This document shows, one piece after another, positions 16,340 to 32,000 of a stretch of DNA of 32,000 nt. A model generated the notes under the pieces. It was not told where the DNA came from and did not search any database. It saw only the letters and a list, made by a program, of their open reading frames with translations. The translations under genes were made by a program, and so were the position numbers. The stretch's first letter is position 1; each line of letters opens with the position of its first letter. The DNA is taken from contig NZ_JAVEYL010000023.1 in NCBI RefSeq assembly GCF_034003485.1, positions 27,410 through 59,409 of the forward strand, read 5' to 3'. This stretch comes from Thauera sp. GTDB lineage: Bacteria; Pseudomonadota; Gammaproteobacteria; Burkholderiales; Rhodocyclaceae.

Positions 16340-16891
16340 ATGACCAAGCTCTACCCTCCGCACCACACGCCCCCGGGCACCTCGACCCCGGGCGCATCCA
16401 GCGTGGGAGCGGGCTTGCCCGCGAACGCAGCCTCGCCGGCAGAACCTTCGCGGGCAAGCCCGCTCCCACGGCAAACGCCCGCACGGCGCCTGGCGCACTT
16501 CTACGAAACCCTCACGCCGGACAGTCTCGCAGCGCTCGACGCGCTCTACGCCCCCGACGCCCGCTTCAAGGACCCCTTCAACGAGGTCACTGGCACCGCC
16601 GCCATCCGCCGCATCTTCGCGCACATGTTCGCCACCACCGACGCGCCGCGCTTCCTGGTCACGGCGTGCATCGAGCAGGGCGAGCAGGCGATGCTGGGCT
16701 GGGAGTTCCACTTCGCGCTGCGCGGGCGCGCGCTGACCGTGCGCGGCGTCACGCATCTGCGCTTCGACGCCGACGGCCGGGTCGTGCTGCACCGCGATTA
16801 CTGGGATGCCGCCGAGGAGCTGTACGAGAAGCTGCCAGTGGTCGGAGGCCTGATGAGGGCGCTCAAGCGCCGGCTGAGCGCGACGGGCTGA
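16340..16891 (+). CDS. NTF2/SnoaL-like family protein
   Basis: ORF 16274..16891. The domain begins at about LAHFYETLTPDSLAALDALYAPDARFKDPFNEV. The start is uncertain: ATG 16340 places a REP-like element inside the N-terminal coding part, and an in-frame GTG lies at 16403. Confidence 0.65.
   Translation: MTKLYPPHHTPPGTSTPGASSVGAGLPANAASPAEPSRASPLPRQTPARRLAHFYETLTPDSLAALDALYAPDARFKDPFNEVTGTAAIRRIFAHMFATTDAPRFLVTACIEQGEQAMLGWEFHFALRGRALTVRGVTHLRFDADGRVVLHRDYWDAAEELYEKLPVVGGLMRALKRRLSATG
16403..16469. repeat. REP-like inverted repeat element, copy 2
   Basis: GTGGGAGCGGGCTTGCCCGCGAA (16403..16425), a 21-nt spacer, then TTCGCGGGCAAGCCCGCTCCCAC (16447..16469). The arms are perfectly complementary and match copy 1 at 2602..2670. 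Confidence 0.8.
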
Positions 16892-22148: not shown

Positions 22149-22379
22149 ATGCAAACCATTCAAGCTTCCGAATTCAAGGCCCGCTGCCTCGCCCTGATGG
22201 ACCAGGTGGCGGCCTCCGGCGAGATCCTCGTCATCACCAAGAACGGCAAGCCCGTCGCCGAACTGCATCCTTATCAGGGCGCGCGCGCATCGTCGCCTTT
22301 CGGCCTGCATCCGGGCGTGCGCATCCTGGGCGATATCGTGTCGCCGGTCGCGGACGAGGACTGGGAGGCCTTGTCGTGA
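22149..22379 (+). CDS. Phd/YefM-type antitoxin
   Basis: ORF 22149..22379. IQASEFKARCLALMDQVAASGEILVITKNGKPVAEL. GTGA overlaps the downstream PIN gene. Confidence 0.8.
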   Translation: MQTIQASEFKARCLALMDQVAASGEILVITKNGKPVAELHPYQGARASSPFGLHPGVRILGDIVSPVADEDWEALS

Positions 22380-22777
22380 TCGTCCTCGATACACACGCGC
22401 TCATCTGGATGGATGCCGACGATGCCGCGCTCGGTCCTCAGGCGCGCGCGCGCATCGAGCAGGCATGGCGCGGGGGTGAAGTTGCGGTCAGCGCGATCAG
22501 CTTCTGGGAATGCGCCATGCTTGTGGATAAGGGGCGCATTGCCCTGCCGCTTGCTGTAGACGGCTGGCGGGCAGGCCTGCTGAGTGCAGGACTGGTCGAG
22601 ATTCCGCTCGACGGCCGCATCGCGCTCGCGGCTGCGGGGCTCGCCGACCTGCATCGTGACCCGGCAGACCGCTTCATCGCCGCATCCGCGGGGGCACGCA
22701 ACGCGACGCTGGTGACGGCGGACGAGAAGCTGCTGGCATGGAACTCGGCCCTGCTGCGGCTCGATGCACGGCGCTGA
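22376..22777 (+). CDS. vapC: type II toxin VapC (PIN domain)
   Basis: This is the in-frame part of ORF 22130..22777, from GTG 22376. It begins VIVLDTHALIWM and contains HRDPADRFIAASAGARNATLVTADEKL. Confidence 0.8.
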   Translation: MIVLDTHALIWMDADDAALGPQARARIEQAWRGGEVAVSAISFWECAMLVDKGRIALPLAVDGWRAGLLSAGLVEIPLDGRIALAAAGLADLHRDPADRFIAASAGARNATLVTADEKLLAWNSALLRLDARR

Positions 22778-22948
22778 GCGGCGTTCTGTTGCACGTCCGC
22801 AACAACAAAGGCTGGAATGTCGCGTTTTAGTGCTTCCAGGCTTGCAAGGTGGGCGGCAGGTTTGCAGAATCGCTCCAACTTCTCGCCAGAGAGGTGAGTA
22901 GGGCCAAGGCAAGTGCCTGGTCTCAACTTCAAATTTGAGGAGAAACAC

Positions 22949-23998
22949 ATGCAAAAGAAACTGATCGCGCTGGCTGTTGCTGGCCTCGTTTCGGCCCCGG
23001 CCTTCGCTCAGTCGAACGTGACCATCTACGGTGTGGCTGACGCCTACATGGCGTTTGGTGACCACGGTGACAACGACATGGGCGCCATCAACAGCGGCGG
23101 CCTGTCGGGTTCGCGTCTCGGTTTCCGCGGCGTCGAAGATCTGGGCAACGGCCTCAAGGCTGTGTTCACCTTCGAACAGGGCTACAACGTCGATGACGGC
23201 ACGGGCCTGGGTGGCAACTCGCGTCAGTCGTTCGTTGGCCTCTCGGGTGGTTTCGGTACCGTTAGCCTGGGTCGTCAGTACGCTCCTGGTTACGACTTCA
23301 TTGCTGACTCTTTCGGTAGCTCGCCGATCCTGTCGCCGCAAGCGATCCTTTCGGGCGCCGTGGGTTCGACGATCGATGCCAGCTCTGACGCTCGTTGGAA
23401 CAACTCCGTCGCCTACAACGGCGCTTTCTCGGGCCTGAAAGTTCGCGCCATCTACTCGATGGACGCTGATGTTAGCGGTCGTTCTGCGACCGAAGTTGGT
23501 ACCGATCCGTATGATGACGACGCGCTGGGCCTGGGCCTCGATTATTCGAACGGCCCGCTGCGTGTCGCCGCTGTTTACCAGTACCTGAAGGATGGTGTTG
23601 GCAGCGCAACTTCGGACGATCAGACGGAATGGTCGGTTGGTGGTAGCTACAACTTTGGTATCCTGACTCTGGCCGCCAACTACCAAGACTATGAGGCTGT
23701 TGGTAACCTCAGCGGTAACGACGGTGACATTTGGCAGGTTGGCGTGGTGGTGCCGGTTGGCGCTGCTGGCAACGTCCATCTGGGCTACGGTGAACTCGAC
23801 GCGGATCTTGCCGATGCCAAGGCTAAGTCCTACTCGATCGCTTACACGCACGCTCTGTCGAAGCGCACGACCGCTTACGCTGGCTACAACCGCACTGACA
23901 ACGATACTGGCCTGAACATCGGTGTTGTCCCCGCGCCGGCTGGCGTGACCGGCGAAGAAGCTGACGTCTTCGCTGTTGGCGTTCGCCACACCTTCTAA
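22949..23998 (+). CDS. outer-membrane general porin (betaproteobacterial OmpC-like / porin_4 type)
   Basis: This is the in-frame part of ORF 22913..23998. GAGGAG precedes ATG 22949. It has a signal peptide (MQKKLIALAVAGLVSAPAFA), then QSNVTIYGVAD, alternating beta-strand patterns, and a C-terminal F (AVGVRHTF). Codon usage differs from its neighbours, as in a highly expressed gene. Confidence 0.9.
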   Translation: MQKKLIALAVAGLVSAPAFAQSNVTIYGVADAYMAFGDHGDNDMGAINSGGLSGSRLGFRGVEDLGNGLKAVFTFEQGYNVDDGTGLGGNSRQSFVGLSGGFGTVSLGRQYAPGYDFIADSFGSSPILSPQAILSGAVGSTIDASSDARWNNSVAYNGAFSGLKVRAIYSMDADVSGRSATEVGTDPYDDDALGLGLDYSNGPLRVAAVYQYLKDGVGSATSDDQTEWSVGGSYNFGILTLAANYQDYEAVGNLSGNDGDIWQVGVVVPVGAAGNVHLGYGELDADLADAKAKSYSIAYTHALSKRTTAYAGYNRTDNDTGLNIGVVPAPAGVTGEEADVFAVGVRHTF

Positions 23999-24024
23999 TC
24001 TGTTCTCAAGACAGGTTTGAAAGT

Positions 24025-24052
24025 AAAAACGGGCCTTCGGGCCCGTTTTTTC
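24025..24052 (+). terminator. rho-independent terminator of the porin gene
   Basis: Stem ACGGGCC (24029..24035), loop TTCG, stem GGCCCGT (24040..24046), followed by a T-run. Confidence 0.8.
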
Positions 24053-24072
24053 GTTCACGCTCACCACATCAA

Positions 24073-24092
24073 CCGTCGCGTTACACGACGCT
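24073..24092. repeat. island palindrome family, copy (CGTCG-N7-CGACGCT)
   Basis: The sequence is cCGTCGcgttacaCGACGCT, directly after the integrase stop codon (24093..24095) at the left edge of the island. Confidence 0.5.
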
Positions 24093-25397
24093 TTAGCGCA
24101 GTGGATCGAGCTTGAAAAACTCGCCCGACAGCCTGCCTGCGTGCCAGTTCGCCATCAGTTCTTCCTTGTGTAGTTCGATCCACGCATTCACCAGCATCTG
24201 CTTGTTGCGCGGCAGCTCGCCGAAGATGGGCTTGTTGGCGGCAATGTCGAAACCCGCTTCCAGTCCCTCATACATCGCGAGCAGAAACGGCGCGGTGGGC
24301 TTCTTGGTCTTGGGCATTGGCAGCGCAACGATGATGCCGTGGTAAGCGGAGATCATCCGCAGGTCAGTCACACAGGGGCGCTGAGAGGGTGGCCGCGTGT
24401 ACAAGTGCGCGATGTCGAGTCCCGAGAACGCCAACCTGCTGACCGCTTCGAACAGTGGTTCCAATGGATACTGCTCGTTGCCATAACGACGACTGGCACG
24501 CTGCTGCGTGTGACCTGACAGTGCGTCGTGCACTTCCTCCTCGATGCCCACCGCGCGACACGCATCCTTGAAGGTGTGGCGGAACGAGTGGAACACCTTG
24601 CGACTGTCGGTGATGCCCACTTTGCTGCGCAGGTAGATCGAGAACCACGTGCTGAAGTAGCCGCCGAGCTTGCCGCGACCGTTGGCACGTAGTTCGGGGA
24701 ACAGCAGACCAGGTCGCCGCGCACGTGCCACGTAGTCGAGAAAGCCACAGTCGAGCAGTTGGGGATGTAGTGGGATGCGACGACGGGACGCGGCGTTTTT
24801 CAACTGTGCGTGTGCTGCGTCGTCGGTGATGCTGAGGTAGTGACCCAGCGTGTCGTCGTGCCGCACATCGGCCACCATCAACTGTGCCAACTCTTCCACC
24901 CGCGCACCCGTAAAAAGCGCCAGCAGCGGCAACCAGTAAGCCGCTTCACGACCGCCGCCTTTGGGAAACTTGCGCTGGGTATAAACCTCGCTTTGAAACA
25001 GGCGGTTCAACTCGTCGGCAGTAAAGGCCACGCGTGCTTTCTGCTGCGGCGTGGCGATGGCCCGCACATCGGCTGCTGGATTGTGGGCCGTATGCTGGTA
25101 GTCGATGGCGGTGCGGAAGAAGCCTTTGAGAATGCCGATTTTGTGGTTTGCGGTGACGGCGCTTTGTCCTGCTGCCAGCAAGTGATCACGAAAGGCCAGC
25201 ACATCACGGCGCTCGATCTCGGCAAGTGGCTTGTGCTCCACGAACACGGCGAACGAGTCGAACACCTTGCGATACTCGACAATGGTTGTCGCTCGTCGCT
25301 TGGTTGATGTGCGCTGCCACTGCTCGAACAACTCGTCGTAAGCGGCCGTGGCTGGCGCTGCTGTCGTGCTCGATGTGGATGTGCTTGTGCGTGTCAT
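24093..25397 (-). CDS. tyrosine-type site-specific integrase fused in frame to a DUF4160-like C-terminal domain
   Basis: ORF 24093..25397. Catalytic signature: FTGARVEEL (Arg), HSFRHTF (HxxR), SGH, RRY (Tyr). Residues 348-434 (MISAYHGIIVAL...LPRNKQMLVNAWIELHKEELMANW...FFKLDPL) resemble a complete DUF4160 protein, including its own Met. Confidence 0.85.
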   Translation of the reverse strand: MTRTSTSTSSTTAAPATAAYDELFEQWQRTSTKRRATTIVEYRKVFDSFAVFVEHKPLAEIERRDVLAFRDHLLAAGQSAVTANHKIGILKGFFRTAIDYQHTAHNPAADVRAIATPQQKARVAFTADELNRLFQSEVYTQRKFPKGGGREAAYWLPLLALFTGARVEELAQLMVADVRHDDTLGHYLSITDDAAHAQLKNAASRRRIPLHPQLLDCGFLDYVARARRPGLLFPELRANGRGKLGGYFSTWFSIYLRSKVGITDSRKVFHSFRHTFKDACRAVGIEEEVHDALSGHTQQRASRRYGNEQYPLEPLFEAVSRLAFSGLDIAHLYTRPPSQRPCVTDLRMISAYHGIIVALPMPKTKKPTAPFLLAMYEGLEAGFDIAANKPIFGELPRNKQMLVNAWIELHKEELMANWHAGRLSGEFFKLDPLR

Positions 25398-25408: not shown

Positions 25409-25429
25409 AGCGTCGTGAAACGCGACGCT
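25409..25429. repeat. island palindrome family, copy (AGCGTCG-N7-CGACGCT)
   Basis: The sequence is AGCGTCGtgaaacgCGACGCT, 12 bp upstream of the integrase start. Confidence 0.6.
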
Positions 25430-25485
25430 ACGAGAAAGTGTGTGTGACCGTCCCATTACGCGACGCTTGAGAGATTGAATGCGTG

Positions 25486-25506
25486 AGCGTCGCGTAAAGA
25501 GACGCT
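25486..25506. repeat. island palindrome family, copy (AGCGTCG-N7-aGACGCT)
   Basis: The sequence is AGCGTCGcgtaaagAGACGCT. Its first 12 nt are the exact reverse complement of TTACGCGACGCT at 25456..25467. Confidence 0.55.
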
Positions 25507-25511
25507 TGCGA

Positions 25512-25946
25512 TCACTTCGGCTTGCGCACGATGCTGGCTGTGACGCTCTCGATGGCGCTGTCCAGTTCGCCCGCTTCGGCAGCCTGCTTGATCGTGGTAA
25601 GCGTCGGCACAATCTCAGCCGTGCTTTCCAGCTCGACCGCGTTCGTGTTCTTGCTGAGCGGCAGCACCTTGTTGCCATAGCGGATCGCAAGTTGAACCTT
25701 GCCGTTTGCTTCCCACCACCACGCCTTCACTTTCTTTTGCGCTTCGACGGTGACGCGCTCGCCCGTCTCTTCGTTGCGCACCTTGCGCTTGCTCTTGAGT
25801 TCGAAGCTCGCGCCTTCGTACACCGAGCGTGCCCACTCAATCTGCTCGGTAAGCTGCTTGATGAGTTTTGCGCGTCGTTGCTGTTGCGGGGAAAGCTCGT
25901 TAGGACGCTTGGCGGAAACAAGCTTGAGGGTGTTCAGCAGTGCCAT
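25512..25946 (-). CDS. hypothetical protein (144 aa, Lys/Glu-rich)
   Basis: ORF 25512..25946. GGAG lies 9 nt upstream of the ATG. MALLNTLKLVSAKRPNELSPQQQRRAKLIKQL...KVKAWWWEANGKVQLAIRYGNKVL. I could not confidently name a family. Confidence 0.6.
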   Translation of the reverse strand: MALLNTLKLVSAKRPNELSPQQQRRAKLIKQLTEQIEWARSVYEGASFELKSKRKVRNEETGERVTVEAQKKVKAWWWEANGKVQLAIRYGNKVLPLSKNTNAVELESTAEIVPTLTTIKQAAEAGELDSAIESVTASIVRKPK

Positions 25947-27606
25947 TTTCGACGCTCCATGTGTGTATGTTGTATGGATAGTTTATGGTCGATGCTGGCG
26001 TCGGACGACCGAAATTTGTCGCTGGCTGCTCCACCGAGAACTGCGCTTGTAGTGCTGCCTTCTCGATTGCGCATTGAGTTGCGAACTGCTCCTCTTCACG
26101 GATGTGCCGATGGTGTGCTTGCTCTTGGCGCGCTACCTCGGCAGAGTCGCTGAGGTATGGCTTCAGTTCTTTACCTTCCAGATGCCAGTAAGGAATGCCC
26201 GTCTGCTCTCTCATTTCAAGTTCGATGGTCGCTTTTAGCTCAGCGCCCAGTTTTCGATCCAAAATCACTGCGTCGTGTATCGAGGCGACGACCTGGCGCC
26301 CCTTGCTGGTTACGATTTTCTTCACGGCATCCATCGCCCACGTTTCGAAATGCTGATAGAGAAATGCGATAACGAGTGGTTTGCTTATGCGTCCGCTCTC
26401 CGTTCTCAATCGTGGGCTATCGAGTAAGGTCGGTATTTCTTTTAATGCGTAGGCATAGATCAACTCATCCATCACCTTCTGTTCCTGAATGAAGCCGCGG
26501 ATGGGTGCGCAAGTCAGAAAGCGACGGCGGTGGATCGGGTTTTTGATGATGTCGACTAATGCGGGGTTGTGCCAACTTCCATTCTTTAACCAGCCGCTTC
26601 GCTGCTCGCGTGCGCCAAAACTGATTGCCGTGATCGCTTGTTTGACGATGCGTTTCTGTAGATCCTCGTTGACGTTATCGTCCTTCTTGAATGTTAGTAA
26701 GCATATCTCCTTGACGATCGCAGGTTTGTCATCGATGAAGTAAATGCTGTTCTTAAATAGCGCGTCGGGTCTCGCACTTGGGTCAAGGGTTCGCGCTAAA
26801 TCGCTTCCCATACCGACCTTCCAAGATATGACGGCCGATCGTATGTCGTATTCCCAGCAGCCGCCATACATCGCTCGCCGTAGTTGCTTGCGAACAGACT
26901 GCGCACTGATGCCTTCGTAGTAGGTGCGGCCAAAAGCGCTTGGCTTGCGTCGTTGAAGATAAATGCCGCCCAGCTCGGTCGCGATGTTCAGAATGTGCGC
27001 AGCTTGGGTGAGGTCGGTGAGCCGCTTGTCCTCGGTTAAATGCTTGGGCTTTGTCTTGAGCCAATCGATGTAAGCCTGTAGTGACTTTGTGTTGACGGGT
27101 GTGGGGTCGAAGATTTCGAATAGCTCAGCTAGGCTGTTGATGGTCGCTGCTTCTGGATAGGTGCGGTCGATGAGGCTGCGTCCAGTTTGACTGCTGTCAC
27201 TGCCGCTCAACAGTTGAGCAGTTGCGCTATTGGTGCTTCCGAACTGCGCGATGTTGTCGAAGGTGATTGTGACTAAGGGCGAGAGCTTTACTTGCGAGAG
27301 TTTGTGGGTGAGGTTATTGCCTCGTTCGACGGCAATGACCAACGACAGCTTGTTCTGTTCAAGCCACTTATGTAGTCGTATCTTGTCGCGTCCGAGCTGT
27401 CCGCCTTTATTGCTCAGCGTGTGTAGCGATAGGCTGTATAGGTTGAGTTTGCTTTGCGCGGGTGTGCGCCCGTTGACGACAGACCTGGTAATCAAGTCTT
27501 CGAGGGTGGTGACGTATTTCTTGAGTGCGCGCGCGACGTTTGACGTTGGGAATGCCTCGGTGAGTGCGCGCGATACTTTCTCATCTACTTGTATATTGAT
27601 CGACAT
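25900..27606 (-). CDS. 568-aa protein with family-A (Pol I / T7-like) single-subunit polymerase-like motifs; function unknown
   Basis: ORF 25900..27606. AGGAGG lies upstream of ATG 27606. By-eye motifs: SAFGRTYY (aa 224-231), EYDIRSAVIS (D254), KQAITAISFG (K322..F330-G331) and ASIHDAV (H444-D445). Their order and spacing resemble palm/fingers motifs A, B and C. The call is not supported by any search. Confidence 0.7.
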   Translation of the reverse strand: MSINIQVDEKVSRALTEAFPTSNVARALKKYVTTLEDLITRSVVNGRTPAQSKLNLYSLSLHTLSNKGGQLGRDKIRLHKWLEQNKLSLVIAVERGNNLTHKLSQVKLSPLVTITFDNIAQFGSTNSATAQLLSGSDSSQTGRSLIDRTYPEAATINSLAELFEIFDPTPVNTKSLQAYIDWLKTKPKHLTEDKRLTDLTQAAHILNIATELGGIYLQRRKPSAFGRTYYEGISAQSVRKQLRRAMYGGCWEYDIRSAVISWKVGMGSDLARTLDPSARPDALFKNSIYFIDDKPAIVKEICLLTFKKDDNVNEDLQKRIVKQAITAISFGAREQRSGWLKNGSWHNPALVDIIKNPIHRRRFLTCAPIRGFIQEQKVMDELIYAYALKEIPTLLDSPRLRTESGRISKPLVIAFLYQHFETWAMDAVKKIVTSKGRQVVASIHDAVILDRKLGAELKATIELEMREQTGIPYWHLEGKELKPYLSDSAEVARQEQAHHRHIREEEQFATQCAIEKAALQAQFSVEQPATNFGRPTPASTINYPYNIHTWSVENGTAEHPQACFRQAS

Positions 27607-28068: not shown

Positions 28069-28641
28069 ATGGGACAAGCGAGAGTGATGACGGCAGCAGA
28101 GGTGCGGCGGGTGCTGGACTACGTGGCAACGAGGCCGCACGCAGCACGCAACAGGGCGTTGGTGCTGATGTCACATTGGGCGGGGCTGCGCGCGAAGGAG
28201 ATCGCCGCGCTGCGCTGCTGCGATGTGGTCGATGGAGCGGGGCGGGTGAAGGAAGAAGTGCTGCTGTCGGTCGAGCAGACCAAGGGCAAGCGTGGGCGCG
28301 TGGTGTACTTGGGGACCAAGATTCGCAAGGAACTCGCCACCTACCTGCGCGCCTGTCCGCCGCGCAGTGACGCATCGCCACTCTTTCCGACGCAGAAAGC
28401 ACCGACGCGCGGCTTCTCGGCGAACACGATGGCGCAGTTCTTCCACAAGCTCTACAAGGAAGCGGGCATCGAGGGTGCCAGCTCACACAGCGGTCGGCGC
28501 AGCTACTTGACGACCCTTGCCGACAAAGGCACAAGCATCCATATTCTCAAGACGCTGGCAGGGCATCAGAGCATCAGCACCACTGCGGTGTACTTGTTCA
28601 GCAGCCCATCGCAACTGAAGGCAGCAGCCGATTTGGTCTAA
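28069..28641 (+). CDS. short tyrosine recombinase (catalytic domain only, 190 aa)
   Basis: This is the in-frame part of ORF 27997..28641. GGAGGG precedes ATG 28069. Catalytic residues: WAGLRAKEI (Arg), TKGKRGR (Lys), SHSGRRS (HxxR), LAGHQSISTTAVYL (His, Tyr). There is no N-terminal core-binding domain. Confidence 0.8.
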   Translation: MGQARVMTAAEVRRVLDYVATRPHAARNRALVLMSHWAGLRAKEIAALRCCDVVDGAGRVKEEVLLSVEQTKGKRGRVVYLGTKIRKELATYLRACPPRSDASPLFPTQKAPTRGFSANTMAQFFHKLYKEAGIEGASSHSGRRSYLTTLADKGTSIHILKTLAGHQSISTTAVYLFSSPSQLKAAADLV

Positions 28642-28661
28642 ACGGGATACAGGAGAGGAGT

Positions 28662-29060
28662 GTGCGGGACTTCGAGAAGGCGTTGTGCGAGTGGGCGCAG
28701 GAGTATGACGAATACGAGGAGTGCCCCGACGCGATCAGCATCGTGTTCGACGGCTATAGCGAATCAGACGAAGAGGAAGGCTTAGAGGAAGCGCTACGGA
28801 AGCGATGCTACGCCGTCTTCGTTCACAAACAGTCGGCAACCGAACGCTTTGTATTCCCAGAACATGACACGATACATAGGTGGATCTTACATAGGCCTGA
28901 CGTGGAGGCGTGCTTTTATGTCTGGCTTCGCGCAGACGGCCAGGTAGAGTTTATTACGCAACTTGATAATGCTGCGGATGAAACGTGGGCGCGGGAGGTG
29001 ATTATGGCGCTGTGGCGGAAAGAGCGTGGCGAGGATGAAGAAGACAGTAGCGTCGTTTAA
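28662..29060 (+). CDS. hypothetical acidic protein (132 aa)
   Basis: ORF 28662..29060. GTG start with AGGAGAGGAG upstream, 20 nt after the recombinase stop. It has Asp/Glu-rich N- and C-terminal parts. I did not recognise a family. Confidence 0.55.
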   Translation: MRDFEKALCEWAQEYDEYEECPDAISIVFDGYSESDEEEGLEEALRKRCYAVFVHKQSATERFVFPEHDTIHRWILHRPDVEACFYVWLRADGQVEFITQLDNAADETWAREVIMALWRKERGEDEEDSSVV

Positions 29061-29069
29061 CGCGACGCT
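29049..29069. repeat. island palindrome family, copy (AGCGTCG-N7-CGACGCT)
   Basis: The sequence is AGCGTCGtttaacgCGACGCT. It spans the stop codon of 28662..29060, between convergent genes. Confidence 0.6.
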
Positions 29070-29074
29070 GTCAC

Positions 29075-29335
29075 TCAAAGCTTGGGCGGGAGTTTCTTGG
29101 TGATTTCGAGGTTTCGTAGTTGTCGCAGTAGCTGGTCTTTCTGCTGCTGCTCGGCGTCACGCTTGAGTCTGCCGTAAGCCATCAGTCCCATCACCAGTTC
29201 GGCTTTTGTTGGTTTCTTGCGTTTTTCGCTCTGTGCGCTTTGCTGGATGACAGATTGTATGCGCGACAAGCTCTGTGCGGAGTCAGTGGCGACTGAAGGT
29301 GGGTTGGCTGGCTGAACGATTTCGTTGATTTTCAT
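29075..29335 (-). CDS. hypothetical small protein (86 aa)
   Basis: This is the in-frame part of ORF 29075..29416, from ATG 29335 (MKINEIVQPANPP...). The longer ORF would run through the upstream terminator hairpin. A TATAAA-like box lies about 20 nt upstream. Confidence 0.45.
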   Translation of the reverse strand: MKINEIVQPANPPSVATDSAQSLSRIQSVIQQSAQSEKRKKPTKAELVMGLMAYGRLKRDAEQQQKDQLLRQLRNLEITKKLPPKL

Positions 29336-29371: not shown

Positions 29372-29410
29372 ATAAAAAAGGGTTTGCGCCGTAGAAAGCG
29401 CAAACCCTCT
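29372..29410 (-). terminator. rho-independent terminator after the AAA+ gene
   Basis: Arms GGGTTTGCGC (29380..29389) and GCGCAAACCC (29398..29407) are perfectly complementary. On the minus strand the stem is followed by a T-run (A-run 29374..29379 on plus). Confidence 0.7.
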
Positions 29411-29412
29411 TT

Positions 29413-30078
29413 TCATAGCACTGTTAGTTGTAGTCGTTTAGGAGGAATCGGTGTTTTTCGAGTGGCTATTAGATCGTCAAGTTGGTTGAGGTAGCCGCGA
29501 AGGTCACCAGTTTTGACGACAGAGAGTTGTTTAACGAGCTCCGCTTGTGTAATCGCGATGTTCTCGTTGGCAAGTATTGAGGTCGCGCGAGGCAAGAATG
29601 AGTGAACGGAAATGGCTGGAAACTCGACACAGCGGCAGCGGGAGCGGATGCTTTGATGGATGGCCATTTGATTGTTGGTTGTGGCGAAGAGTGTGATGCG
29701 ATCAGCGAACGAATCCAGCGCCGTCCAGAGCTTTACGAGGTTTTTGGTGGCGTTATCGAACTCGTGTAGCACGAGGTAATAGCGCGCGTTCTCGTCCCCT
29801 AATTTAGTTAACTGGCATTGACGTTGTAGGTAGTCTTTCAAGTCTTTTTGGTCGAGAAGCTCAGAATAGTCCTTTTCTTCGACTATGGCGGACTCACCGC
29901 TGATCGCGTAGGGCAGTAGATCAGCAACGGTCGTTTTTCCAGTTCCGTTTGGCCCATAAAAGATGATGTTTTGGATGAGGTCGCCTCGGGCGACGGTGTT
30001 GATAAACTCGCGAACACTTTCGTTCGGGTAAATCACATCGGCAAGCGTGGTGGGCTTGTATTTGATTTGGCAGTTCAT
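29413..30078 (-). CDS. AAA+ ATPase resembling clamp-loader subunits (T4 gp44 / RFC small subunit-like), 221 aa
   Basis: ORF 29413..30078. Motifs: IKYKPTTLADVIYP (RFC box II-like KYRP), GPNGTGKTT (Walker A), LVLHEFD (Walker B position with His in place of Asp), LFATTNN (sensor 1) and IRSRCRCVEF (SRC motif). Confidence 0.8.
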   Translation of the reverse strand: MNCQIKYKPTTLADVIYPNESVREFINTVARGDLIQNIIFYGPNGTGKTTVADLLPYAISGESAIVEEKDYSELLDQKDLKDYLQRQCQLTKLGDENARYYLVLHEFDNATKNLVKLWTALDSFADRITLFATTNNQMAIHQSIRSRCRCVEFPAISVHSFLPRATSILANENIAITQAELVKQLSVVKTGDLRGYLNQLDDLIATRKTPIPPKRLQLTVL

Positions 30079-30108: not shown

Positions 30109-30918
30109 TTAAGCGGCGAGGCGCTCAACGGTAGGTTTTTTGGCGTAAGCGGACAGTTCCGCGTTGTCGCGGTTTTGCGCGTGGGCAGTTTCGAGATTTT
30201 GTTTTGCGATTCGAGTCAGCAGTTGGTTATAGATGATGTCATCGACGTCGAGCAGCGCAGCGACCACATCGACAGTGCCATCGAGTTTGGGTCGAGCAAG
30301 AAAGATAGCGTGATTTTTTGTGGCACCCGCAAACTCGAACGTGGCAAGAGGTTTTGCCGTATTCGTTTCAATGTCAGCGAGAGTCGCGTTTTTTGAGTTG
30401 GCGAGATCAGCGGCCTTTTTGATGGCGTCCTCGCTCTTTTTGATTTGGCGACGAACTTCTTCAATGCCGCCGTTATCGCGCAGCCAGTTCGCGAGCCCGT
30501 CATAGGTCACGCCGTGCGACTTTGCGGCAGTGAGAACGGACACATAACGATTGGCGCGCTTGCGGTCGGAGTTGAAGACGTAGCGGATGAACATGGTGAG
30601 CATGGTTGTGTTGCTTTGAACTTTGATGCCGCGTTCGTTGAGCGCCGCGGTGAGGTCGAGGCGGAGTTTTTTGCGCTCAGCGTCTTTTGCGTTGATGAAG
30701 TTTTCGTCGTAGAGCTTCAGGCAGTCAGCCAGCAGTCCGTAAAGGATGTCGGTCGCGGTTTTGTATTCGTTGTCAGTCCATGCCGCGCAACGCGTATGGA
30801 TAGCGTCGAGAGACGCGACGGTGGTGTTGGCGAACAAGTCGGCGTGAGCGTTGGTGGTTGCGCGGGCGATGGACGTGCGAACAGTGGCGTTGAGGCGGGA
30901 AGTGGAAGTCTTAGTCAT
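30109..30918 (-). CDS. hypothetical protein (269 aa)
   Basis: This is the in-frame part of ORF 30109..31029. GAGGT precedes ATG 30918 (MTKTSTSRLNATV...). It ends 30 nt before the AAA+ gene. I did not recognise a family. Confidence 0.65.
   Translation of the reverse strand: MTKTSTSRLNATVRTSIARATTNAHADLFANTTVASLDAIHTRCAAWTDNEYKTATDILYGLLADCLKLYDENFINAKDAERKKLRLDLTAALNERGIKVQSNTTMLTMFIRYVFNSDRKRANRYVSVLTAAKSHGVTYDGLANWLRDNGGIEEVRRQIKKSEDAIKKAADLANSKNATLADIETNTAKPLATFEFAGATKNHAIFLARPKLDGTVDVVAALLDVDDIIYNQLLTRIAKQNLETAHAQNRDNAELSAYAKKPTVERLAA
30802..30822. repeat. island palindrome family, copy inside a CDS (AGCGTCG-N7-CGACGgT)
   Basis: The sequence is AGCGTCGagagacgCGACGGT, within the 5' part of the 30109..30918 gene. 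Confidence 0.45.
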
Positions 30919-31060: not shown

Positions 31061-31921
31061 ATGGCTACGAAGCGGCCGCGCCAGGCGTGGCATCTCTCAG
31101 GCACCGACTTCACGCAGCCAAGGCTCTACGCGCGGCAGGACTGGCGCTTCTTGCTCTTCTTTCAGTTCCTGCGTATCAGCCCGAGCTATGCGCTGGCGCT
31201 CGACTGTGAGCGCGAGCAGGAACTCGCGGAGCGTCTGGGCAGCGCGGAACGAGCGCGCAAGGTGTGGCGCACGCGGTGTGATATGGGGGATGTGTTCACC
31301 GTCCTGTTCAAGGACTGGTGGCAGGCACGCGGGCTCTCGCTTTTCGGCATACACACGGCCAAGCCCCGAGTAGTGGGCATCCGTCGCTTGCGGCCAAATG
31401 AAGACGCCGATGAGCGGCGTAAGCGTGTAGGTGCTGCTTATCGCCGCTTTGTCGAGGGGCGGTATAGAGAGCAGGGAAACCCCGACTCAGTGCTGATCTC
31501 GGTTCCGTTAGGAATGAAGCCTGCGTTGATGGTGCGACAGTTGAAACAACTGCTGGCGGAGGTCCAGGCTGAGCATCCGCCCGAACTACCAGTAGCGGCA
31601 TACGCCCTTGAGGAAAACAAGTTGCGCGAGGCGAGGCTCCTTGCGTGCTTGCGCCTGATCTACAAGCGCAGCGCGCGGCCCGACGAGGAACTATGGCGCG
31701 CTGCGGCACGGGCCAAGATCAGCGAAACGCATGTCGTCGATCCGCTGGCGAAGAAGAAGGACGCCAAGAGTGCCGAGGCACGACGTATGCTGACGATCAT
31801 GGCAAGTCGCCTGTCGCGTGACGCACTCATGATTGCCGAGAACGCTGCGGCGGGTAAATTTCCATCGATGGAAGGTAAGCGCTCCACGAACCCCATCCTT
31901 CCGGGGCTCGCTACGCTGTGA
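31061..31921 (+). CDS. hypothetical protein, 3' end probably replaced by an IS insertion
   Basis: ORF 31061..31921 (MATKRPRQAWHLSGTDFTQPRLYARQDWRFLLFFQFLRISPSY...). The last ~15 codons lie beyond a GTAAGCG motif at 31875 that looks like an IS66-family terminus. Confidence 0.6.
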   Translation: MATKRPRQAWHLSGTDFTQPRLYARQDWRFLLFFQFLRISPSYALALDCEREQELAERLGSAERARKVWRTRCDMGDVFTVLFKDWWQARGLSLFGIHTAKPRVVGIRRLRPNEDADERRKRVGAAYRRFVEGRYREQGNPDSVLISVPLGMKPALMVRQLKQLLAEVQAEHPPELPVAAYALEENKLREARLLACLRLIYKRSARPDEELWRAAARAKISETHVVDPLAKKKDAKSAEARRMLTIMASRLSRDALMIAENAAAGKFPSMEGKRSTNPILPGLATL

Positions 31922-32000
31922 TCAACTGCTCAGCCTTGAGACTCCAGGGCAGGAGGGCCTCGAAGTGTTCGACGGTGGTCGCGGTAGGCAAGGCGCGCAG
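31875..32000 (-). mobile_element. probable end of an IS66-family insertion sequence (continues beyond the window)
   Basis: GTAAGCG at 31875..31881 is the typical outer terminus of IS66-family inverted repeats, as I recall. Thirty-six nt inward, a minus-strand reading frame ends ...TVEHFEALLPWSLKAEQLITA*, resembling IS66 TnpC C-termini (..ELLPWN..). Confidence 0.4.
31911..32000 (-). CDS. C-terminal fragment of a putative IS66-family transposase (5' part outside the window)
   Basis: The reverse complement reads LRALPTATTVEHFEALLPWSLKAEQLITA then stop (TAG at 31913..31911), open to the window edge. It is too short to be in the ORF track. Confidence 0.35.
   Translation of the reverse strand: MRALPTATTVEHFEALLPWSLKAEQLITA

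Follow-up and report, generated by a model that had tools for sequence, protein, structure and literature searches.

The stretch of DNA analysed here, called the window, comprises 32,000 nucleotides of Thauera sp. (RefSeq assembly GCF_034003485.1, contig NZ_JAVEYL010000023.1, positions 27,410 to 59,409) and encodes an AAA+ ATPase of 221 residues that belongs to the clamp-loader clade, together with T4 gp44 and the small subunits of RFC. This gene forms a two-gene operon with the gene located directly upstream, named p269, and the operon is a core module in betaproteobacterial genomic islands of a family not described before. It is genetically tied to a dyad-symmetric DNA site, found at its 3' end and at the ends of other modules, where cassettes insert. 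The AAA+ protein keeps every element of the ATP site except the Asp of Walker B. The chances appear evenly balanced that this protein assists a mobile-DNA module in an ATP-dependent way, acting with p269 at or near the palindromes and perhaps anchored to the beta clamp of the host. Nearly all known clamp-loader AAA+ modules occur as pentamers that are assembled through a collar and load sliding clamps, a pattern that the family described below, with at least 156 members, breaks. The general idea of a clamp-loader module recruited to another role, put forward in a preliminary description of this DNA, is supported; the accompanying term 'orphan' was wrong, since p269 is an obligate syntenic neighbor and the pair is embedded in an island module with a DNA site of its own.

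A clamp-loader module without its collar

The assignment to the gp44/RFC clade had already been proposed from the motifs of the protein. The KYKP, GPNGTGKTT, TTNN and IRSRCRC motifs were found by translation exactly as described; the sensor 2 motif GDLR had been missed. The profile searches point in the same direction. In PHROGs, the protein matches phrog_168, 'clamp loader of DNA polymerase', with E=3.9e-29 over positions 14-210 of a profile of 314. In NCBIfam, it matches the RFC small subunit (3e-17) and DnaX (4e-16), both far under the equivalog cut-offs, and Pfam returns the generic AAA family with weak matches to DNA_pol3_delta2 and Gp44_lid and nothing else. The best sequence matches in the PDB are yeast Rfc5, which comes top, T4 gp44, and archaeal and eukaryotic RFC small subunits (RFC2-5), at about 1e-9. 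A structural model produced with AlphaFold2 from 51 family sequences (pLDDT 90.1, pTM 0.84) consists of an alpha/beta core (residues 1-155), a three-helix lid (158-207) and a disordered tail (208-221). The top 50 matches of this model in a Foldseek search of the PDB are all clamp-loader subunits, either RFC or gp44, and the model superposes on 2chg, a truncated construct described as 'RFC domains 1 and 2', over the full length of the latter (TMt 0.73). These results together identify the AAA+ module of the clamp-loader clade, a core plus lid from which the collar is gone.

Other AAA+ clades, any of which would have overturned this assignment, gave weaker matches. RuvB was rejected with E=0.0078 for RuvB_N, against 1e-17 to 1e-16 for RFC and DnaX, as were IstB and DnaC, with E=0.049 for IstB_IS21 over the P-loop only and E=0.036 for the DnaC-like phrog_50, and DnaA, on its profile scores. 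The name RarA is given by JGI to several homologues, the family being otherwise deposited as 'AAA family ATPase', as 'hypothetical protein' or, by automatic pipelines, as 'RarA' or 'DNA polymerase III delta prime'. The RarA/MgsA/WRNIP group was nevertheless rejected: PRK13341 scores 36.9 bits against a cut-off of 891, the match to 3pvs has E=0.026, and the C-terminal tetramerisation domains are absent. A known defence system was likewise rejected as the identity of the gene, PADLOC having given generic P-loop matches only, none of them significant to a defence model.

The absence of the collar, which had been deduced from the length of the protein, is visible in the AlphaFold2 model and turns out to be a trait of the whole family. 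The search of 5.8 billion proteins gave at least 156 homologues, and lengths and residue counts were taken from 120 homologues among the matches listed. All 120 are 221-246 residues long, which makes the lack of a collar an ancestral state of the family, with no truncation to be invoked. A truncated or frameshifted collar was rejected on these lengths and on the fact that, in most lineages, the stop codon of the AAA+ gene is directly followed by a palindrome and a terminator; no downstream open reading frame (ORF) is collar-like. The clamp loaders matched by the model among the viral structures of BFVD are full-length proteins, each of at least 280 residues. The protein encoded in the window is a member of the clamp-loader clade that lacks the collar, the Walker B Asp and the partners of a functional loader subunit, and it probably does not act as a canonical pentameric clamp loader.

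The Walker B position and the conserved ATP site

In the alignment with T4 gp44, VIDEFD stands opposite VLHEFD of the window protein, so that His105 does occupy the position of the Walker B Asp, as had been noticed. This residue is however neither fixed nor special, since the position is held by His in 69 homologues, Asn in 35, Glu in 12, Lys in two and Asp in two. A sequencing error at the His codon, which had been left as a way out, was rejected: a protein with 100% identity is encoded on L025, an independent contig from a metagenome, and the non-Asp residue is found family-wide; homologues at 94-98% and at 64-69% identity likewise carry His. Yeast Rfc5 has an Asn at the same place (IINEAN opposite VLHEFD), which gives the non-Asp residue a precedent within genuine clamp loaders.

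The remainder of the ATP site is highly conserved in the alignment of 51 family sequences. The invariant or near-invariant residues are K6, Y7, P9, G42, N44, G45, K48, E106, F107 and D108, followed by T133, N135, R145, S146, R147, C148, D192, L193 and R194; the catalytic Glu and the following Phe-Asp are invariant. R147 is invariant, S146 and C148 are at least 90% conserved, and RSRC is present in about 100 of the 120 members listed. The conserved KY(K/R)P and GDxR motifs correspond to RFC boxes II and VIII. The kept Glu, sensors 1 and 2 and SRC arginine argue for a nucleotide-dependent protein, one that would contact the ATP site of another AAA+ protein through a trans-acting SRC arginine.

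The named hosts of the family are Limnohabitans and Thauera, the other members coming from freshwater or marine metagenomes, and a scan of genome contigs gave one true locus among the matches listed. A phage, plasmid or viral provenance was rejected, as IMG/VR, INPHARED and PLSDB contain no member of the family and only canonical gp44/RFC proteins at 21-30% identity. The GC content of the window is about 70% up to about 16 kb and falls to 50-60% over 17-31 kb, which places the AAA+ gene in foreign-looking DNA.

Beyond the lid, the chain continues in a Pro-rich linker (13.7% Pro, against 4.8% overall) and terminates in a family motif, phi-[S/K/T/Q]-phi-[V/I]-COOH, located within the last six residues in 90 of 121 members and within the last 14 in 112. 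It takes the form QLTVL-COOH in the window and KLSLV or KFSVV in other members. The beta-clamp-binding consensus, Q-L-x-L-F, is often C-terminal, including in the transposases of many insertion sequence (IS) families (PMC4549789). The tail may, by this likeness, tether the AAA+ protein to the host beta clamp, a possibility offered as a lead and not as a result.

p269, the syntenic partner

The neighborhood of the AAA+ gene was surveyed by comparing the proteins of the window island with the six-frame ORFs of 45 loci containing a member of the family. In 39 of these loci the AAA+ gene is immediately preceded, in the same orientation, by the gene of a p269 homologue of 250-290 residues, and in the other six the contig end cuts the region; the gap between the two genes is 29-72 nt. 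The same neighborhood was found by exact-protein look-ups around three diverged AAA+ homologues (67%, 66% and 42% identity). p269 is the obligate syntenic partner of the AAA+ gene, in a two-gene operon that reads p269 and then AAA+. The earlier statement that no clamp or partner subunit was evident can be kept for the clamp, there being no clamp gene nearby, and has to be abandoned for the partner. Searches of the island ORFs with Pfam, PHROGs and NCBIfam brought out neither a clamp nor a delta/gp62-like protein; the host beta clamp is still a possible partner.

The p269 family is large and stands alone, with 1,110 representatives at 50% clustering, mostly of 250-290 residues and without annotation. 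No match was obtained in Pfam, PHROGs, NCBIfam or the PDB, profile searches included. The upstream protein of 269 residues had been described as not clamp-like, which agrees with this lack of profile support; a degenerate, delta-like AAA+ protein is equally unsupported, with an hhalign probability of 0.1%. The best-conserved residues are two near-invariant tyrosines, Y60 and Y125. The chain ends in Ala-Ala-COOH in 72 of the 137 full-length members (LAA, KAA or VAA), which resembles the C-terminal recognition class of ClpX used by ssrA; such a tail would suggest, by analogy, control by ClpXP. One distant p269-like protein, P0132, is encoded in an island of similar type that has no AAA+ gene.

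A dyad-symmetric site at the module ends

Repeat analysis revealed in the window a near-palindrome of 21 bp, AGCGTCG-N7-CGACGCT, whose ideal form is AGCGTCGCGT-W-ACGCGACGCT. Across loci the site measures 17-21 bp and its universal core is CGTC-N9-GACG. The window contains six matches with at most one mismatch, against 1.25 expected. In its near-palindrome form, the site was found 78 times in 384 kb of loci of the AAA+ family, against 0-5 times in shuffled sequences, and not once in 326 kb of non-family loci. With the relaxed core, 72 sites were counted in 352 kb of family loci and three in 399 kb elsewhere, and at least one core site is present in 39 of the 45 family loci. No match was obtained for the palindrome in viruses, and Rfam gave nothing relevant for the site.

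In most lineages the site lies 9-31 nt past the stop codon of the AAA+ gene, and in the lineage of the window it follows the small ORF located after this gene; other copies are found after the stops of the DUF6641 gene, of p286 and of the large integrase. Sites bracket the whole island in Thauera aminoaromatica MZ1T and in loci L010 and L025, and the p269-AAA+ module itself in, for example, L007 (positions 8040/11017), L010 (2584/5559) and L025 (253/3223). A plain intrinsic terminator was rejected as an explanation, the flanks of the site having no T-runs and a separate true terminator following it in several lineages. A repetitive extragenic palindromic (REP) element of the host was also rejected: the other 24 kb of the window contain one chance-like match, and the site recurs in the islands of distant organisms.

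The symmetry itself appears to be maintained. The inner positions of the site covary in a way that keeps the dyad, 75% of cells being paired against 66.6% in shuffles, and the covariation score of 0.235 exceeds that of shuffled sites (0.123, none of 500 shuffles reaching the observed value) and of slid controls (0.04-0.08). One copy is intragenic in p269: of 35 distinct p269 genes, 20, belonging to several lineages, contain the site at the codons concerned (V-x-x-L-D). For the Val of this motif, GTC is used in 23 of the 35, against a background of 21%, a bias that suggests that the DNA itself is under selection within the coding sequence.

Cassettes at the site

A precise insertion can be observed by comparing two related loci. 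In L030, four perfect copies of the site (2678/3124/3765/4614) are present between the AAA+ operon and sInt, the gene of a short Xer-like recombinase. They bound three units of the same orientation, which were assigned by eye from their translations as an ORF of 98 residues, a Phd/YefM-RelE-like pair and a second toxin-antitoxin-like pair. In L034, a single site takes the place of these four, and the homology blocks end and begin exactly there, matching the first and the last copy of L030. A segment of 1.9 kb has thus been inserted precisely at the site, with the site repeated at each junction. This pattern is the signature of site-specific cassette insertion.

Five independent loci sampled through p568, the gene of a polymerase-like protein of the island, were used as a counterpart (L071-L080). 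All five contain p568 and DUF6641 genes and two also contain sInt, but p269, the AAA+ gene and the core sites are all absent from them. The sInt of L077 (E=4e-63) is nearer to that of the window than is the sInt of most AAA+ loci. Within a sample of this limited size, the palindrome follows the p269-AAA+ pair (and p286), and not sInt, DUF6641, p568 or the large integrase.

Possible functions of the p269-AAA+ module

According to the reading favored here, the AAA+ protein would be an ATP-dependent switch or matchmaker, assembled via trans-acting arginine-finger contacts with or on the basic p269. It would act on DNA at or near the palindromes, where it would help or license the DNA transactions by which the modules are moved, a function comparable to that of IstB, TnsC/TniB, MuB, or FtsK when it activates XerD. 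The tail, a QLx-phi-phi-like peptide carried on its Pro-rich linker, may attach the protein to the beta clamp of the host, which would link these events with replication forks.

Several observations weigh against this reading. The short Xer-like recombinase is nearly always present and is the obvious catalyst, so that the AAA+ protein could be irrelevant to recombination, and p269 matches no known recombinase, transposase or DNA-binding family. It is only by inference that p269 and the AAA+ protein interact and that either of them binds the palindrome. The correlation between site and module was established on loci chosen via the AAA+ gene, plus the five negative-control islands. The phi-x-phi-phi C-terminus is a weak pattern, and a Gln is found within the last seven residues of 28 of 121 members only, most members being without the Gln of the consensus. 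Lastly, the single-strand hairpin of the site reaches -15 kcal/mol in L030 and L012, but the copies of the window itself fold weakly, at -4.5 to -9.3 kcal/mol (about -4 to -9 for the window and L001). The site may act as a hairpin or cruciform, or else as a symmetric duplex.

A role in replication was considered as an alternative and is regarded as rather unlikely. The AAA+ protein would then be an accessory of island replication, that is a minimal loader, a clamp recruiter or a sensor of primer junctions, and would serve, together with p568 and the host beta clamp, in copying the element after its excision or in resolving recombination intermediates through replication. Such a role would suit the clamp-loader fold, the conserved ATP-site motifs and SRC finger, the likeness of the QLTVL end to a beta-clamp-binding motif, the phage gp44 loaders as closest sequence relatives, and the family A polymerase fold of p568 in the same island. 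The distribution of the genes tells otherwise: p568 stands beside the AAA+ gene only in L007-L011, L025 and L081, none is found within 10 kb in the other loci, about 35 in number, and the five independent p568 islands have no AAA+ gene. The two genes therefore co-occur only in the close lineage of the window, each being common without the other, which weakens this alternative. In addition, a protein without a collar cannot form a pentameric loader in the known way, and neither a clamp nor a delta/gp62-like subunit was recognised, p269 not being AAA+-like.

That the pair is itself cargo, a two-gene defence, abortive-infection or addiction cassette carried between palindromes, seems quite unlikely. 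This would account for the bracketing of the module by palindromes in L007, L010 and L025 and for its company, as the neighboring cargo includes toxin-antitoxin pairs, methylase/SNF2 genes, TIR/caspase genes and restriction-modification genes. The operon is also more diverged than its flanks between L034 and L030 (70% against 82%), which suggests module exchange. Against it stand the PADLOC result, with no significant model match beyond the generic P-loop, and the absence of the family from phages and plasmids; moreover, related islands without the pair are also without palindromes, which would not be expected if the pair were one cargo among many. Much less plausible still, to the point of being extremely improbable, is a degenerate and catalytically dead remnant of a phage clamp loader, devoid of ATP-dependent function. 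The loss of both the Walker B Asp and the collar and the low GC content of the island, of foreign origin, would fit such a remnant. It is excluded by the conservation pattern of the family, in which the Walker A Lys, the Glu, the sensor 1 Asn, the Arg finger and the sensor 2 Arg persist unchanged in more than 120 members with identities down to 29-40%, and in which length, synteny and C-terminal motif are conserved as well.

The reading of the AAA+ protein as a helper can also be taken further. p269 and the AAA+ protein might be the machinery itself of a new cassette-capture or mobility system, integron-like or IS21-like, derived from a clamp-loader module; this is the most novel of the readings, and on present evidence a rather unlikely one. 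p269, as a new fold with two tyrosines and an Ala-Ala end, would recognise or process the CGTC-N9-GACG sites, and the AAA+ protein, tethered to the beta clamp, would couple the use of the sites to replication forks or to junctions of single- and double-stranded DNA. Such a machinery would explain why the palindromes track the gene pair and not the Xer-like recombinase.

The palindrome and the cassette platform may constitute a new system in their own right. The literature contained nothing pertinent on DUF6641, the palindrome, clamp-loader-like island ATPases or PolA-type integrative elements, and no description of the architecture of the AAA+ family, of p269, of the palindrome or of this type of island was found in the literature or in database entries. 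If the link between the AAA+ protein and the site is functional, the protein would be the first helper of a mobile-DNA system to derive from a clamp loader, and would define a new cassette platform of environmental Betaproteobacteria (Thauera, Limnohabitans) with toxin-antitoxin, restriction-type and other defence cargo. The islands also provide functional leads for three large unannotated families, namely p269, the PolA-like p568 proteins and DUF6641. The system can be tested in T. aminoaromatica MZ1T, which is in culture and completely sequenced.

Comparison with known systems

The closest relatives by sequence and fold are T4 gp44, phrog_168 and the RFC small subunits, which belong to the same AAA+ clade; identity with T4-like gp44 is about 30% over residues 6-201. 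These proteins share with the window protein the KY(K/R)P motif, Walker A, the Glu of (D)ExD, sensor 1, SRC, GDLR and the three-helix lid. The window protein differs from them by the lack of the collar (domain III), which closes the known route to the pentamer, and its family by the replacement of the Walker B Asp by His, Asn or Glu. The family also has no recognised gp62/delta-like subunit, clamp gene or replisome context, and is found in chromosomal islands and not in phages or plasmids. Yeast Rfc5, which has the same kind of Walker B residue, possesses by contrast a collar and an insertion, and is an integral, non-hydrolysing subunit of its pentamer.

A likeness of layout only can be drawn with Hda, a stand-alone AAA+ module plus lid of about 230 residues, with a clamp-binding peptide on a flexible end, a trans-acting arginine finger and a weak or atypical nucleotide cycle of its own (PMC5397184). 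Hda nevertheless belongs to the DnaA/initiator clade and its clamp motif is N-terminal.

With IstB (IS21), TnsC/TniB (Tn7/Tn5053) and MuB, the common points are a small AAA+ gene located just downstream of the DNA-processing gene of the element, and defined DNA sites. The order p269 then AAA+ mirrors istA-istB, a layout shown by the two IS21 copies of the MZ1T region. These ATPases are however of other AAA+ clades and their partners are DDE transposases, while p269 matches no transposase family and the recombinase of the window island is a tyrosine recombinase.

The sites themselves recall the attC sites of integrons and the pdif sites. The cassettes, toxin-antitoxin pairs included, end after a stop codon in a dyad site with conserved outer bases and covarying inner ones, a tyrosine recombinase gene lies beside the array, and insertion at the site is precise. 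The differences are nonetheless substantial. attC sites measure 57-141 bp and contain extrahelical bases, and pdif sites measure 28 bp and are asymmetric, whereas the island site is 17-21 bp long and nearly perfectly symmetric. The island recombinase is a catalytic-only Xer-like protein of 190 residues and neither IntI nor the host XerCD, and the presence of the site follows that of the p269-AAA+ pair, not that of the recombinase.

Organisation of the island and its flanks

The features of the window are collected in Table 1. sInt, a divergent p286-like gene and the DUF6641 gene recur in most AAA+ loci with enough flank.

Table 1. Features of the AAA+ protein, of the island and of its flanks (positions in the window; pI, isoelectric point)
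Feature	Position	Strand	Remarks
Porin gene	22913-23998	+	Flanking gene; Porin_4, 3e-62
Terminal site copy	24072..24092	.	Right after the Int434 stop; island edge beside the porin gene
Int434	24093..25397	-	Full-length tyrosine integrase; SAM-like N-terminal domains; C-terminal DUF4160 (E=4e-8)
Three site copies	25409..25506	.	Starts 25409, 25447 and 25486; in the interval from the DUF6641 stop to the Int434 start
DUF6641 protein	25512..25946	-	144 aa
p568	25900..27606	-	568 aa; family A DNA polymerase-like fold, highly divergent (AlphaFold2 and Foldseek)
sInt	28069..28641	+	190 aa; Xer-like tyrosine recombinase, catalytic domain only
p132	28662..29060	+	Acidic, pI 4.4; downstream of sInt
Site AGCGTCGTTTAACGCGACGCT	29049..29069	.	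3' end of the p269-AAA+-p86 module, which converges with the sInt-p132 unit
p86	29075..29335	-	Small basic ORF downstream of AAA+; internal ATG of a 113-aa ORF; window lineage only
Intrinsic-terminator-like hairpin with T-run	29379..29408	-	Immediately follows the AAA+ stop; restricted to the lineage of the window
AAA+ ATPase	29413..30078	-	221 aa, ATG start; clamp-loader clade; domains I and II only; QLTVL-COOH end
QLTVL pentapeptide	29416..29430	-	After the Pro-rich disordered linker; candidate beta-clamp-binding or docking peptide
Sensor 2 GDLR	29497-29508		Residues 191-194; verified by translation
RSRC	29635-29646		Residues 145-148; context IRSRCRC; verified by translation
Sensor 1 TTNN	29671-29682		Residues 133-136; verified by translation
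Walker B LVLHEFD	29755-29775		Residues 102-108; verified by translation
His105, codon CAC	29764-29766	-	Walker B Asp position; translation and gp44 alignment
Walker A GPNGTGKTT	29929-29955		Residues 42-50; verified by translation
KYKP box	30052-30063		Residues 6-9; verified by translation
p269	30109..30918	-	269 aa, basic, pI 9.2; internal ATG of a 306-aa ORF; stop 30 nt upstream of the AAA+ start
Intragenic site copy	30802..30822	.	In p269, over codons T-V-A-S-L-D-A
p286	31061..31921	+	Divergent from p269; recurrent module member; 3' end replaced by a foreign insertion

Two tyrosine recombinases are encoded in the island. The fusion of integrase and DUF4160 seen in Int434 is found likewise in L010 and MZ1T. 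sInt matches the catalytic domain of Xer-type recombinases only (XerC-like 4a8e, 9e-15; XerA; XerD). It has no N-terminal core-binding domain, and it is present in nearly all islands, including the palindrome-free L071 and L077.

The neighbor of 568 residues, previously noted as polymerase-like, does have a fold like that of family A DNA polymerases. At least 480 unannotated homologues of p568 were found, and sequence searches of Pfam and the PDB gave no match. The top 50 Foldseek matches of its AlphaFold2 model (pLDDT 80.5) are all family A polymerases (Taq, Klenow fragment of Pol I, T7, Pol theta, Pol nu), with E of about 2e-6 and a probability of 1.0, yet a TM of only 0.31-0.37. Three motifs are invariant in the family, YD..RS, K..FG and HDA, which on reading the alignment would fit polymerase motifs A, B and C. 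p568 may represent a new, divergent PolA-like clade of mobile elements. Its gene usually neighbors that of DUF6641, and the islands concerned (L071-L080) also contain tyrosine integrases and cargo for defence or arsenic resistance.

The island of the window is also present in the complete genome of MZ1T (CP001281.2), where it lies between two porin genes and has IS21 copies at both edges. In MZ1T, L007 and L010 the two porin genes are of the same orientation, and the porin locus seems to be the usual insertion region of the island. In the window, an ORF of 597 residues at 22274-24067 on the reverse strand was rejected as a spurious antisense ORF over the porin gene. The gene of p132, a protein of 132 residues, is absent from the MZ1T island, otherwise 94-98% identical, and represents a presence/absence polymorphism, noted at 28652-29011, beside a palindrome. 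At the other end, the homology of the window with MZ1T, L025 and L010 stops at 31872-31874, and the remainder (31873-32000) matches a conjugative plasmid record, MN366361.1, with 93.7% identity over 126 nt. A foreign insertion has therefore removed the last 44 or so codons of p286 and displaced the terminal palindrome here. Finally, a perfect inverted repeat of 24 nt, CGTGGGAGCGGGCTTGCCCGCGAA / TTCGCGGGCAAGCCCGCTCCCACG, with a spacer of 21 nt, can be observed at 16402-16470, in the host DNA of high GC content that precedes the island.

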